From a virus (Duplodnaviria > Heunggongvirae > Uroviricota > Caudoviricetes): DNA of 36,546 nucleotides. The position numbers and the translations under genes are program-made. A model generated the notes under the pieces. The model was given only the letters and a program-made list of their open reading frames with translations, ran no database searches and was not told where the DNA came from. Position 1 is the first letter of the stretch, and each line of letters begins with the position of its first letter. This document shows, one piece after another, positions 3,772 to 9,913 of the stretch. Where the stretch lies: the IMG/VR virus record IMGVR_UViG_2648501206_000003; one strand, given 5' to 3'.

Positions 3772-4191
3772 CTATGATGCGTTTTGTGCTTTCTTTTTAC
3801 GGATTTCTTCGTAGATCATATTGTAATACTGTTTTTTCTCTTCAAGAGTTTTTAATAAGTTATCCGCTTCACTTTCTGGCAGTTCGTCTAAGAGATCTAA
3901 AAAAATACGTTGTCGTGGCGTTAGAACCCTTGTTTCATAACTGGAGGCTGTGTTCGTTGATGATGAAACGATACCATCCATCCATCCCCGGGGTAACCCA
4001 AAGGACTCTTCGATAATCTCCACCATATCATCAGCGATCCGTTTTTTTCCCTTTTTCCCCTCTGGGTACAACATTCTTGATACATAAGAAGGCTCGCGCC
4101 CGATCTTTCTGGCCACGTTAACCGCTTTACCATCGCATTTCTCATCACGAATTTTGATGAGTTGCTGTCGTCTAAATTCATATTTGTCCAT
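3772..4191 (-). CDS. Prophage repressor (DicA/RacR-like, 139 aa, no S24 peptidase domain)
   Basis: Track ORF with an N-terminal HTH-like segment (GKAVNVARKIGREPSYVSRML). C-terminal pattern LTPRQRIFLDLLDELPESEADNLL resembles DicA as recalled. Divergent from the Cro-like gene and flanked on both sides by operator repeats. Confidence 0.6.
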   Translation of the reverse strand: MDKYEFRRQQLIKIRDEKCDGKAVNVARKIGREPSYVSRMLYPEGKKGKKRIADDMVEIIEESFGLPRGWMDGIVSSSTNTASSYETRVLTPRQRIFLDLLDELPESEADNLLKTLEEKKQYYNMIYEEIRKKKAQNAS

Positions 4192-4982: not shown

Positions 4983-5053
4983 CTGACAATAGCCATATCG
5001 AATCGCTTCCGGCAACTCGTGAGTAAAAAGATTCGGTATCAGAAGAGGTGAGT

Positions 5054-6124
5054 ATGGCTAACGCCTGGCTCAGATTATGGCATGACATGCCAAATGACCC
5101 TAAGTGGCGAACAATTGCCAGGGTGTCAGGGCAGCCAATTGCAACAGTGATGGCAGTGTATATCCACCTCCTGGTGAGCGCGTCACGAAATGTCACGCGA
5201 GGTCACATTGATGTCACGACAGAAGATTTGGCAAGTGCGCTCGACGTGACAGAAGAGGTAATTGATTCAATTTTGCAGACGATGCAGGGGCGGGTACTTG
5301 ATGGTGATTTAATCACTGGATGGGAAAAACGCCAGGTGCTTAAAGAGGACAACGGCAATATTTCGCAAACCGCAAAATCTCCTGCAGAGCGCAAGAGGGC
5401 GCAGCGAGAGAGGGAAAGAAAGCGGGAACAAAATGGCGATTGTCACGGCGCGTCACGAAATGTCACGCACATGTCACGACGAGTCACGACAGATAAAGAT
5501 ACAGATAAAGATACAGATCAAGAAGATCAAAACACTATGGTCCATGGCGTAAAAAACGCCACGAACCAGGCAGGGGATGTTCAGACCGTCAATCTTGGTC
5601 AGCCAGCAGGCACGACACCGGAAGCCGATTCAGCGTATGCGCTGAAAGCCGATTCGGGCGCTGTGCAGCAGGTGATGACCCCAAGGCCGGAGCAATCACA
5701 CCAACTGCAGCAGCCTGAAGCCGATTCCGCCATTCAGCGGGAAGCCGATCGGGTAGTCCCGGAAAACACCGGGCTGTCTGTGGGACGAGTGGATTATCCG
5801 GATGTGTTCGAACAGGTCTGGCGGGAGTACCCGTTGCGTGCCGGAGCAAACCCGAAGAAATCCGCTTTCAGTGCCTGGAAGGCCAGATTACGCGAGGGGG
5901 TGCCACCAGAGGCCATGCTGGATGGCGTGAGGCGTTACGCAAGATACTTGGCGGCTACCGGGAAAACGGGAACGGAATTTGTTCAGCGAGCGACGACGTT
6001 TTTTGGACCGGACCGGAATTTTGAGAACCCCTGGTTGCTCCCGGTAAGCGGCACGAACAACCAGCGTTGTGTGAATCATATTTCTGAACCGGATAACGAA
6101 ATTCCGCCGGGCTTCAGGGGGTAA
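5054..6124 (+). CDS. Replication initiator (lambda O-like / replisome-organiser N-terminal domain); contains the probable origin
   Basis: Track ORF 5048..6124 (GTG); ATG at 5054 follows AGAAGAGG. N-terminus ANAWLRLWHDMPNDPKWRTIA resembles replisome-organiser/DUF1376-type initiators. Iteron arrays lie inside the coding sequence. Confidence 0.55.
   Translation: MANAWLRLWHDMPNDPKWRTIARVSGQPIATVMAVYIHLLVSASRNVTRGHIDVTTEDLASALDVTEEVIDSILQTMQGRVLDGDLITGWEKRQVLKEDNGNISQTAKSPAERKRAQRERERKREQNGDCHGASRNVTHMSRRVTTDKDTDKDTDQEDQNTMVHGVKNATNQAGDVQTVNLGQPAGTTPEADSAYALKADSGAVQQVMTPRPEQSHQLQQPEADSAIQREADRVVPENTGLSVGRVDYPDVFEQVWREYPLRAGANPKKSAFSAWKARLREGVPPEAMLDGVRRYARYLAATGKTGTEFVQRATTFFGPDRNFENPWLLPVSGTNNQRCVNHISEPDNEIPPGFRG
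5182..5218. repeat. Iteron cluster 1: four copies of GTCACG-type repeat at 10-11 bp phasing
   Basis: GTCACG at 5182, 5192, 5213 and GTCACA at 5202; block GCGTCACGAAATGTCACGC repeated again at 5450..5468. Confidence 0.55.
5442..5515. repeat. Iteron cluster 2 (five GTCACG repeats at ~10 bp phasing) plus adjacent AT-rich 12-bp tandem repeat; probable replication origin
   Basis: GTCACG at 5442, 5452, 5462, 5473, 5483; then GATAAAGATACA twice (5492..5515) in an A+T-rich stretch. Arrangement matches lambda ori lying inside gene O. Confidence 0.55.
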
Positions 6125-6164: not shown

Positions 6165-6590
6165 GTGGCAAAAGTTTTTACACAAGAAGAGCGGGAAAAA
6201 ATTAAAGGGCAGGTTGTTGAACTCGTACGCCGGAGTGGGCGCGAGACGTTACGGCAACTGGAAGCCAAGACAGGTGCGACAAGATATCTGATGAGCGTTC
6301 TTGCCAGAGAGCTGGTTGCCAGTGGCGATGTATACAACTCTGGTTACGGGTTATTCCCGTCTGAACAGGCGCGTAAGGACTGGCAAAATGCCCGCAAAAA
6401 ACTCTCAAGGGCAAAGGTGAAGAAACCTGCAGTGGTTGATCCGGACCTTATCTGGTCGTTACCAGACGGCGAAATACGCCGCTACGACAGGCGCCTGAAT
6501 ATAATCTGTCGCGAGTGCCGGAAGAGCGAAGCTATGCAGCGTGTACTGGCATTTTATCAAGGAAATGTTAGGTATTTTAGACGTTACTAG
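6165..6590 (+). CDS. Hypothetical protein (141 aa, possible winged-helix segment, C-terminal CxxC)
   Basis: Track ORF, GTG start preceded by AGGAGG; no family recognised; sits where lambdoid phages usually carry the helicase-loader gene. Confidence 0.45.
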   Translation: MAKVFTQEEREKIKGQVVELVRRSGRETLRQLEAKTGATRYLMSVLARELVASGDVYNSGYGLFPSEQARKDWQNARKKLSRAKVKKPAVVDPDLIWSLPDGEIRRYDRRLNIICRECRKSEAMQRVLAFYQGNVRYFRRY

Positions 6591-6743: not shown

Positions 6744-7430
6744 ATGACCCCAATAAAAATATTTATGACTATTGCTGATTTCAAACGGCCTAAATTGGAG
6801 CTCCCAAACGGGGCAAACAAACTACTACTGCACTCTTGCTGTGCTCCATGTTCCGGTGAAGTGATGGAGGCGCTTCAGGCCTCGGGAATCGACTACACCA
6901 TCTTTTTCTACAACCCGAACATTCATCCTCAGAAAGAGTATTTAATTCGTAAGGATGAAAATATTCGCTTTGCTGAACAACACGGCGTGCCGTTTATCGA
7001 TGCTGATTACGACACCGACAACTGGTTTGAACGTGCCAAAGGAATGGAATGGGAGCCTGAGAGGGGGATCCGTTGTACCATGTGTTTTGACATGCGTTTT
7101 GAGCGGACAGCGTTGTACGCTGCTGAAAATGGTTTCAGTGTGATCAGCAGTTCACTGGGCATTTCACGCTGGAAAAATATGCAGCAGGTTAACGAGTGTG
7201 GGCGGCGAGCTGTTGCGCATTATCCGGGTATGGTGTACTGGGATTATAACTGGCGCAAGCAGGGCGGCTCGTCCCGTATGATTGAAATCAGCAAGCGCGA
7301 AAAATTCTATCAGCAGGAATATTGTGGCTGTGTGTATTCTCTGCGCGATACCAATCTACACCGCAAATCTCAGGGACGCCCTCTTATCAAAATTGGCCAA
7401 CTCCACTACGGAAAAGAAGAGAAGGAGTGA
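6744..7430 (+). CDS. DUF208 / QueH-like protein (candidate epoxyqueuosine reductase family); cargo gene
   Basis: Track ORF; motifs [11 protein letters not shown] and FFYNPNIHP recalled as signatures of the DUF208/QueH family; further Cys pairs (CTMC, CGC). Start could be 6744 or 6765. Confidence 0.5.
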
Positions 7431-7610
7431 TTTTATGGATCACCTTTCTGATTGATTTCATATTGGCGAGGTGACGTGAGTTAAGTAGAATGGCTGCGGG
7501 TGCTTGAGGCTATCTGTCTCAGGCATGAACACTGAAAGGCAGATAGAGAAAAGCCCCAGTTAACATTACGCGTCCGGCAAGACGCTTAACATTAATCTGA
7601 GGCTCAATCT

Positions 7611-7823
7611 ATGAACGGCAAATCTAGGTTAGCCTCTTACGTGCCGAAAGGCAAGGAGAAGCAGGCTATGAAGCAGCAAAAGGCGATGTTAATCGCCCTG
7701 ATCGTCATCTGTTTAACCGTCATTGTGACGGCACTGGTAACGAGGAAAGACCTCTGCGAGGTACGAATCCGAACCGGCCAGACGGAGGTCACTGTCTTCA
7801 CAGCTTACGAACCTGAGGAGTAA
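7611..7823 (+). CDS. mok: Mok (modulator of killing) reading frame, N-terminally extended over hok
   Basis: Track ORF of 70 aa whose last 51 residues are the Hok toxin, as in chromosomal mok/hok loci. Confidence 0.6.
   Translation: MNGKSRLASYVPKGKEKQAMKQQKAMLIALIVICLTVIVTALVTRKDLCEVRIRTGQTEVTVFTAYEPEE
7668..7823 (+). CDS. hok: Hok-family type I toxin (51 aa, HokD/RelF-like)
   Basis: MKQQKAMLIALIVICLTVIVTALVTRKDLCEVRIRTGQTEVTVFTAYEPEE, near-identical to HokD as recalled; AAGGAGAAG upstream of the ATG; stable hairpin GGCGGGGGAGAAATCCCTCGCC downstream (7831..7852). Confidence 0.85.
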   Translation: MKQQKAMLIALIVICLTVIVTALVTRKDLCEVRIRTGQTEVTVFTAYEPEE

Positions 7824-8794: not shown

Positions 8795-9913
8795 ATGTCA
8801 GGCTCCCTTATTCCGAACGCCCACCGCGCCCATCCCGCACATACCAGCAACGGATCTGGAGGTAACGTGCGGATATTACTTCGACCTGTTCTGGTACCGG
8901 AACTTGGGCTGGTGGTCCTTAGGCCGGGCCGTGAATCCATGCAAGTATTTCATAACCCTCGAGTGCTGGTGGAGCCTGAACCGAAAAGCATGCGCGGTCT
9001 GCCGTCCGGAGTCGTCCCTGCCGTTCGCCAGCCGCTGGCGGAGGATAAATCATTACTGCCATTTTTCAGCGATGAGCGGGTGATTCGTGCTGCTGGTGGT
9101 GCTGGTGCATTGTCTGACTGGCTGTTGCGCCATATTAAATCCTGCCAGTGGCCACACGGCGATTATCATCACAGCGAAACCGTCATTCACCGTTATGGTA
9201 CCGGCGCAATGGTGTTGTGCTGGCACTGCGACAACCAGCTGCGTGACCAGACATCCGAATCACTCGGGCAACTTGCTCATCAAAACCTGTCAGCATGGAT
9301 GATTGACGTCATCGGTCACGCAATAAGCGGTACGCAGGAGCGTGAATTATCTCTGGCTGAATTATCCTGGTGGGCGGTCCGCAATCAGGTGGCGGACGCG
9401 CTACCGGAAGCGGTATTACGTCGTTCGCTGGGGTTGCGTGCGGAAAAAATCCGTTCAATGTACCGTGAAAGCGACATCGTACCGGGAGAGCAGACCGCCA
9501 CCAGCATACTGAAGCAGCGCACAAAAAATCTTGCGCCGCTGCCTCACGCCCACCAGCAAAACCCGCCACAGGAAAAGACGGTGGTCAGCATTGCTGTTGA
9601 TCCGGAGTCTCCGGAATCTTTCATGAGGCGACCTAAACGTCGCCGTTGGGTAAATGAGAAATATACGCGCTGGGTGAAGACACAGCCGTGTGCGTGTTGT
9701 GGTCAGCCAGCCGACGATCCCCATCACCTGATTGGTCACGGTCAGGGAGGGATGGGAACAAAGGCCCACGATATTTTCACGCTACCGTTGTGCCGGGAAC
9801 ATCACAACGAACTTCATGCGGATCCGCTGGCGTTCGAAGAAAAGCATGGTTCCCAGGTTGATTTAATTTTTCGTTTTCTTGATCACGCCTTTGCAACCGG
9901 CGTGCTCGGGTAA
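8795..9913 (+). CDS. DUF968-domain protein (YdfU-like); N-terminus uncertain
   Basis: C-terminal region RPKRRRWVNEKYTRWVKTQPCACCGQPADDPHHLIGHGQGG...LPLCREHHNELH recalled as DUF968 (YdfU of Qin). Possible alternative start at 8939. An overlapping upstream ORF (8587..8865) in another frame may be a separate gene or a frameshifted N-terminus. Confidence 0.55.
   Translation: MSGSLIPNAHRAHPAHTSNGSGGNVRILLRPVLVPELGLVVLRPGRESMQVFHNPRVLVEPEPKSMRGLPSGVVPAVRQPLAEDKSLLPFFSDERVIRAAGGAGALSDWLLRHIKSCQWPHGDYHHSETVIHRYGTGAMVLCWHCDNQLRDQTSESLGQLAHQNLSAWMIDVIGHAISGTQERELSLAELSWWAVRNQVADALPEAVLRRSLGLRAEKIRSMYRESDIVPGEQTATSILKQRTKNLAPLPHAHQQNPPQEKTVVSIAVDPESPESFMRRPKRRRWVNEKYTRWVKTQPCACCGQPADDPHHLIGHGQGGMGTKAHDIFTLPLCREHHNELHADPLAFEEKHGSQVDLIFRFLDHAFATGVLG

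Follow-up and report, generated by a model that had tools for sequence, protein, structure and literature searches.

Replication origins that combine iterons with an A+T-rich tract inside the gene for their own initiator are a known kind of element, and those of phage lambda, SPP1, Tuc2009 and TP901-1 are the described systems against which we compare a locus in IMG/VR record IMGVR_UViG_2648501206_000003. This record, from a virus of the Caudoviricetes, is referred to here as the window, meaning the whole stretch of 36,546 nucleotides that was analyzed. An initiator gene at 5054–6124 on its + strand contains two phased arrays of the hexamer GTCACG, an A+T-rich tract and an imperfect inverted repeat, and on computational grounds this region, 5182–5568, is probably the vegetative replication origin of a lambdoid prophage, embedded in its own initiator gene.

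The lambda origin occupies the linker-coding part of the initiator gene, between the origin-binding N-terminal domain and the partner-binding C-terminal domain, and the window locus has the same placement and the same order of iterons, purine-rich A+T tract and imperfect inverted repeat. Both loci stand in the early rightward operon after cro and cII, or genes like them, and in both, recombination can join the N-terminal domain and origin to different C-terminal domains. Unlike the window, lambda has one array of four 18-bp iterons in its sequence record, and these are imperfect inverted repeats (PMC7466680); the window has a 6-bp core in direct repeat every 10–11 bp, and a second array 260 bp upstream in the region coding for the DNA-binding domain. 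The window also differs in having no detectable O homology, no P-like loader gene and a DnaT-like C-terminal domain. An earlier note on this DNA, made from its letters and open reading frames, had remarked that two separated arrays are unusual beside the single array of lambda; this is correct, and the two arrays turn out to be a conserved trait of the family.

The replisome organizer gp38 of SPP1 binds direct repeats in its own gene, beside an A+T-rich unwinding element, and recognizes another set of repeats as well, apart from the first (PMC6316719). By that published description SPP1 resembles the window in having an origin, oriL, inside the replisome organizer gene and two repeat sets for one protein. 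It differs in that its second site, oriR, at a distance of about 13 kb, is a full second origin that includes an A+T region, whereas the second array of the window shares the gene with the first, 260 bp from it, and lacks such a tract, and in that SPP1 encodes its own loader and helicase. In PMC8965321, Rep2009 of Tuc2009 and ORF13 of TP901-1 are described as replisome organizers that bind direct repeats in their own genes, the repeats acting as the origin. The rep gene of Tuc2009, which is annotated as containing the origin, has CAACCA four times at 11-bp spacing in mid-gene, followed by a purine-rich tract of short period (AGGATAGGATAGG...); this is the layout of the downstream array and A+T tract of the window, and the 5′ part of the Tuc2009 gene showed no upstream array. 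Homology between the window N-terminal domain and the Tuc2009 and TP901-1 organizers was considered and rejected (hhalign probability below 1%), leaving these proteins as architectural analogues only; in place of the DnaT-like domain of the window protein, Tuc2009 carries Rep_Org_C and TP901-1 carries DnaB_2.

Two separated clusters of one short repeat, serving one initiator and both contributing in cis, are also found in satellite phage P4 as ori and crr. The P4 clusters are kilobases apart, and the P4 initiator is a primase-helicase unrelated to the window protein. Iteron plasmids with a winged-helix Rep (RepA_N, staphylococcal, PDB 4pta) are related at the level of the fold only; compared with these, the window locus is a phage module with a shorter repeat core and with its repeats within coding sequence.

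Repeat arrays, A+T tract and hairpin

GTCACG occurs 25 times on the two strands of the window, and nine of these copies fall within 5182–5488. Array 1 (5182–5218, + strand) has GTCACG at 5182, 5192 and 5213 and the variant GTCACA at 5202, at spacings of 10, 10 and 11 bp; array 2 (5442–5488, + strand) has five exact copies at 5442, 5452, 5462, 5473 and 5483, at spacings of 10, 10, 11 and 10 bp. The arrays share one orientation and are 260 bp apart from first copy to first copy, and a lone inverted GTCACG, part of D-V-T codons, lies about 30 bp 3′ of array 1 (5245–5250, − strand). The earlier note had reported hexamer clusters at 10–11 bp spacing, about 260 bp apart inside one open reading frame, and both counts and simulations agree with it; the five copies it placed in the second cluster are all exact, while the four it placed in the first are three exact copies and the variant, with the inverted copy in addition.

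Per 310 bp, nine copies were observed against a maximum of four in 200 first-order Markov simulations of the window, and five GTCACG pairs were phased at 10 or 11 bp against a maximum of one in 200 such simulations; the Poisson probability of at least nine copies is 4e-14, for an expectation of 0.136. Nine copies in 307 bp thus form a phased direct-repeat cluster of the sort that marks an iteron-type origin, and the hexamer does not recur elsewhere in the window at similar density; the earlier note had held that such a recurrence would speak against its proposal. Three more copies lie within 500 bp at 9242–9740, on mixed strands and unphased, and are compatible with chance. The near-duplicate peptides SASRNVTRGH and GASRNVTHMS that had been pointed out before stem from 19 bp of DNA repeated exactly at 5180 and 5450; the two units are 270 bp apart, so the duplicated ASRNVT is read in the same frame.

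Array 2 is adjoined by a purine-rich A+T tract (5489–5535, + strand), a putative DNA unwinding element that comprises 2.9 copies of ACAGATAAAGAT (5489–5523 by Tandem Repeats Finder) and then GATCAAGAAGATCAAAAC. On the + strand the tract is 72% purine and 70% A+T, the GC fraction is 0.35–0.37 across 5480–5559 against about 0.54 for the whole gene, and two GATC sites are present, at 5516 and 5525. An A+T-rich tandem repeat after the second cluster, as claimed earlier, is therefore borne out, and a tract at this place is near universal in homologues: the 50 nt past the last array 2 iteron have a GC fraction at least 0.10 below that of the gene in 54 of 60 cases (mean 0.38 versus 0.58), and their sequence is mostly AGATAAAGATAAAGA or AGAGAAGAG, irrespective of iteron class. 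Array 1 has no A+T tract of its own.

Directly 3′ of the tract, a terminator scan on the − strand picked out an imperfect inverted repeat, TGGTCCATGGCG-TAAAAAA-CGCCACGAACCA (5538–5568), an element missing from the earlier note, whose list of origin parts held the arrays and the A+T repeat. Folded as DNA it gives −10.9 kcal/mol (z −4.95) for the − strand and −8.7 kcal/mol (z −2.85) for the + strand. Among 59 homologues (L002–L083), perfect hairpins with a stem of at least 6 bp are about 6-fold enriched past the tract, with 28 in 4130 nt compared with 358 in 325,851 nt (Poisson p 1e-13). Their stems are unrelated between loci, and their loops are mostly T-N-N-C, as tetraloops closed by C-G. In the gene of Shigella phage 75/02 Stx (L166), nt 470–560 contain a short A-rich stretch and a near-identical hairpin, TGGTCCATGGCG AAAAAAT CGCCACGGACCCA; because this gene keeps the hairpin at the junction with the C-terminal half that it shares with the window gene, the hairpin appears to sit at a recombination boundary between modules.

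Variation of the arrays among homologues

One genome per species was scanned for homologues, which gave 80 loci, spread over many genera of Proteobacteria and a few others; each locus was anchored on the protein alignment, and the most periodic hexamer was chosen separately for each array region. Relatives of about 70% identity (Aeromonas pAEv1818, Pseudomonas P7869) have GTCACG arrays at the same two gene positions, and distant relatives have other hexamers at these positions, namely CGAACG in a metagenomic phage and GCAACG in Ralstonia phage Firinga. The repeats are thus shared by homologous initiator genes of many genera, and not absent from them; absence is the outcome that the earlier note had named as damaging to its claim. 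In a scan of viral contigs, all matches were E. coli prophage copies of 100% identity, with no gain in diversity.

A periodic hexamer is present in both regions at 63 of 81 loci, and at 49 of these 63 it is identical in the two arrays, compared with 17.5 on average and at most 28 after shuffled pairing. Five classes of core are distinguished, GTCACG, GTAACG, CGAACG, GCAACG and GTGACG, which have ACG in common and vary in the first three bases, and on a rough tree the class has changed at least about 11 times. The closest pair to differ in class, L028 and L030, has 83% identity once the array-encoded residues are set aside; all sites are GTAACG in L028 and GTCACG in L030, so that both arrays differ together. 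No other evidence argues as strongly as this covariation of the hexamers for recognition of both arrays by one protein.

L028 and L030 form a close enterobacterial trio with L025, and comparison of gene nt 120–250 and 395–520 in the three shows a GTAACG or GTCACG core in both arrays, with sites that are often 10-bp palindromes (GTAACGTTAC, GTCACGTGAC). Because copies extend into the DNA of the putative recognition helix, the S-N and R-H residues of this helix are dictated by the iterons in these three proteins. The N/H difference was considered as a candidate specificity residue; it is itself iteron-encoded, and the window protein, of the GTCACG class, does not share it.

Nearly every homologue examined has an array beside an A+T tract at the array 2 position. 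About 18 of 81, roughly a quarter, show no array 1 or an unclear one, and these are mostly the most distant ones. The distance between the arrays varies from about 211 to 271 bp from first copy to first copy, and helical phasing of one array against the other was rejected because no phase is conserved. Copy number in array 1 varies through in-frame insertions of 21 bp, which correspond to seven codons, two helical turns and two additional iterons; such insertions occur in E. albertii and in some E. coli alleles, the variation being seen in L007 (gene nt 129–186) and in proteins P0003, P0022, P0057, P0086 and P0117, and E. albertii has six copies of GTCAC at nt 129, 139, 149, 159, 170 and 181. 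The inverted copy is partially conserved, being present at gene nt 192 in 13 of 25 GTCACG-class loci, and inverted copies are found at nt 171 and 201 in the GCAACG class and at nt 171 in the GTGACG class.

Within the arrays the hexamers are read in each of the three frames and encode different peptides. In 20 distinct GTCACG-class genes with 66–79% identity, the third codon positions inside the four array 1 hexamers, two of which had a part in choosing these genes, are 0.98 conserved, as against 0.56 elsewhere. The use of three frames together with the frozen third codon positions places the constraint on the DNA and not on the peptide.

Sequence comparison links the arrays to the N-terminal domain, the only constant partner, and not to the C-terminal domain or the neighboring genes. 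Shigella phage 75/02 Stx has a C-terminal half 82% identical to that of the window protein, joined to an unrelated N-terminal domain, and its gene is without GTCACG. Conversely, homologues that have the N-terminal domain and the arrays differ in their C-terminal domains, and their downstream partners vary among DnaC-like, primase-helicase and DnaB-like proteins, or none. Both the five hexamer classes and the loss of arrays upon replacement of the N-terminal domain link the repeats to the DNA-binding domain of the initiator.

The initiator protein and the case for an origin

The gene at 5054–6124 was delimited from the list of open reading frames and encodes 356 residues. It starts with ATG at 5054, with GAGG upstream and an in-frame GTG at 5048. 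PHROG 3729, 'replication initiation protein', matches the protein from end to end (E 1e-256); the NCBI name is 'phage replisome organizer', in a cluster of 5786 members, and the homologous gene is labelled as a replication protein in phages Tritos, Evi and vB_EcoS-689R5. AlphaFold predicts a confident N-terminal domain (aa 1–97, coding region 5054–5344, + strand) with a helix-turn-helix and a beta-hairpin wing, a basic helix (aa 110–126), a long disordered stretch (aa 128–244) and a helical C-terminal domain (aa 245–332) with pLDDT above 90, which together with the tail is encoded at 5786–6121 (+ strand). The N-terminal model has a winged-helix fold of the DnaD-NTD/CRP type, the fold of the DnaD N-terminal domain. 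Array 1 encodes aa 43–55, that is, the end of helix 3 and a loop of lower confidence that precedes the helix-turn-helix; array 2 encodes aa 130–145, and with the A+T tract it makes up the start of the disordered linker.

A Pfam search with the single protein gave a DnaT C-terminal match below significance. An alignment profile of the C-terminal domain matches the solved DnaT C-terminal domains 6aep (E 8.3e-8), 2ru8 (E 7.5e-6) and 9zbt residues 102–179 (E 2.7e-5), and the tail of the protein weakly matches DnaT 156–179. The protein is therefore a DnaD-like winged helix followed by a disordered linker and a DnaT-C-terminal-like domain. Against the profiles Pfam Phage_rep_org_N and TIGR01714 the protein scores under threshold: PF09681 gives 15.9 bits against a cut-off of 23.3, though over its full length, with aa 5–123 aligned to model positions 1–119 of 121, and TIGR01714 gives 15.4 bits against 49.8; only one of five diverse family members matches, yet the NCBI name is that of a phage replisome organizer. 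Homology to lambda O was rejected, since there is no Pfam (Phage_rep_O) match, BLASTP gives E 0.09 over the low-complexity linker only, and hhalign gives a probability of 0.07%. The term 'O-like', applied to this gene in the earlier note, holds by analogy, as an initiator gene that contains an origin, and not by descent that can be detected. A 36-nt direct repeat (5618–5653 and 5714–5749, 75% identical, 96 nt apart) codes for part of the linker, with the peptide EADS..., and the E. coli alleles of 324 aa lack exactly 32 residues here, as a deletion between the two copies would produce.

On our best reading, the core origin consists of array 2, the A+T tract and the hairpin, and array 1 is a putative accessory cluster of initiator-binding sites. 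We propose that the N-terminal winged helix would bind the 6-bp core GTCACG, and, because copies are one helical turn apart, several protomers could align on one face of the DNA. The initiator, once oligomerized on the five sites of array 2 that abut the tract, would distort negatively supercoiled DNA so that the tract melts, while the inverted repeat beyond it may extrude, or may serve as a boundary or loading signal. The C-terminal domains of E. coli DnaT form filaments on single-stranded DNA at the site of helicase loading (PMC12871339), and filament formation and support of DnaB/DnaC loading are known for the E. coli protein (PMC12871339, PMC4132743). By analogy, the DnaT-C-terminal-like domain, carried on its long disordered linker, might coat the exposed single strand and recruit host DnaB/DnaC, which would explain the missing P-like or DnaC-like loader gene. 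Array 1, which lies 260 bp upstream in the DNA for a permissive loop of the DNA-binding domain, would be a second site cluster for the same protein, most likely in an accessory role such as looping, cooperative loading onto array 2 or dosage control. Binding by the N-terminal domain, unwinding, helicase recruitment by the DnaT-like domain and any role of array 1 are what we infer from this arrangement.

The role of array 1 is the point at which a different account has the most to say for itself. Array 2, the tract and the hairpin could alone be the origin, with array 1 serving regulation and not the promotion of initiation, perhaps as an operator or roadblock within the gene that limits synthesis of the initiator, or as a site for titration or handcuffing that restrains re-initiation; we regard this as possible, if doubtful. 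The loss of array 1 in homologues where array 2 is near universal, its lack of an adjoining tract and the absence of a conserved phase between the arrays all suit such a role, as does its place early in the gene (nt 129–165), where bound protein would meet the transcribing RNA polymerase. Its orientation and spacing, the same as those of array 2 and kept across at least five specificity switches, fit a positive or a negative role alike. Since about a quarter of homologues are without array 1, and since it has neither an A+T tract nor a fixed phase relative to array 2, its function may be that of an enhancer, of a partner in looping or of a site for negative control.

Binding of the repeats by some other protein for the control of transcription, be it the prophage repressor, Cro, a CII-like protein or a host factor, would dispense with an origin altogether. 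Phased short repeats are also typical of transcription-factor arrays, and the region belongs to an early rightward operon directly after cro-like and cII-like genes; against this, homologues with the arrays have other regulators nearby or none, the arrays are gone where the N-terminal domain has been replaced despite the same C-terminal domain and operon position, and the conserved tract and hairpin suit an origin. A conserved host factor is unlikely because the iteron class shifts among close relatives in similar hosts, and we judge this account as a whole improbable. Very improbable, in our estimation, is a by-product of an S-R-N-V-T peptide motif, or of neutral duplication or gene conversion, with no function at the DNA level. 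The 19-bp repeat does yield ASRNVT twice, and direct repeats 260–270 bp apart could be homogenized by conversion; yet a period of 10–11 bp, which is no multiple of three, puts the hexamer in all three frames with different peptides, third codon positions are near invariant inside the hexamers and variable around them, and peptides differ wholly between iteron classes while the periodicity and placement of the DNA repeats persist. The loop encoded by array 1 is, moreover, of low confidence and tolerates insertions of seven residues. Two clusters of phased repeats are reminiscent of plasmid centromeres such as parC of R1, and partition or packaging sites also use phased short repeats, sometimes within genes; here, however, no partition genes are nearby, the terminase and head genes are far downstream, and the repeats are tied to a replication-initiator domain and adjoin an A+T tract, so that we consider a site of this kind extremely improbable.

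The reading of 5182–5568 as an origin is supported, as the earlier note had supposed, by the concerted change of the hexamers, the frozen third codon positions and the near-universal A+T tract, and several observations weigh on the other side. The origin is undescribed in the literature searched, which included accounts of the non-lambdoid replication regions of Stx phages, and in the record annotations inspected. The hairpin with the T-rich run on the − strand also looks like an intrinsic terminator, and gene conversion between direct repeats could have aided the concerted change of the arrays, besides selection by a shared binder. Selection of the genes by two of the four hexamers lessens the force of the third-codon test, though the remaining two, which were not used in this way, are also near invariant. 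No residue of the recognition helix that tracks the iteron class was found in the L025, L028 and L030 trio. Finally, the lack of a clear array 1 in about a quarter of homologues implies that it is not essential to origin function in the family, and the variable distance between the arrays, without conserved helical phase, weakens a rigid looping model.

Distribution, implications and neighboring genes

Of 5426 complete E. coli genomes searched with window positions 5150–5540, 2036 contain the array-bearing segment, at up to six locations in one genome, and variants with the DnaT-like C-terminus are annotated in E. coli O157 strains. Several prophages resident in one cell can share iterons, and cross-activation or interference among them is therefore possible. 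The phage and genome records inspected carry no origin annotation. Within the literature searched and the records inspected, a conserved second array inside the coding sequence of the DNA-binding domain and family-wide concerted switching among five iteron classes both appear to be undescribed, and no description was found of the conserved hairpin or of a DnaT-like fusion without a loader gene.

With the origin and its specificity code in hand, cross-activation and interference of co-resident prophages should become easier to predict. Knowledge of the origin should also assist the design of phage resistance by origin titration ("PER"-type) and of minimal replicons, and the annotation of prophage origins across Proteobacteria. 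The five classes, with close relatives that are one base apart in every site, offer a ready system for the study of concerted change in a winged-helix initiator and its sites, and the DnaT-like fusion, found with no loader gene, suggests a route of host helicase recruitment that has not been studied in phages. More tentatively, and in its full extent unlikely, we suggest that the family is a natural series of matched initiator and origin specificities, with at least five classes and about 11 concerted switches, in which a change of iteron necessarily changes the protein and the evolution of binding site and protein is coupled. On the same conjecture, array 1 would have a distinct function in looping, dosage control or the incompatibility of co-resident prophages, and the T-N-N-C hairpin would be a signal for single-strand loading or priming, read by the DnaT-like domain to capture host DnaB/DnaC without a phage loader.

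The element is an integrated lambdoid prophage. Upstream of the initiator gene are, in order, a repressor gene (3772–4191, − strand), a cro/YdaS-like gene and a cII/YdaT-like gene, so that the repeats lie inside the gene for a DNA-binding replication protein of the early operon. The next gene downstream is DUF977/Ren-like (6165–6590), and neither the list of open reading frames nor Pfam or PHROG searches revealed a P-like or DnaC-like loader gene downstream of the initiator. A cysteine-rich open reading frame of 228 aa follows at 6744–7430 and may resemble QueH. Rfam identifies DicF antisense RNA at 2579–2630 (− strand) and sok antitoxin RNA at 7498–7673 (+ strand), and a Hok-like open reading frame spans 7611–7823; DicF, sok and Hok-like genes are typical of Qin/Rac-like lambdoid prophages. 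Late genes follow further downstream, with large open reading frames at 15.7–33 kb, and the terminase and head genes lie far 3′ of the repeats.

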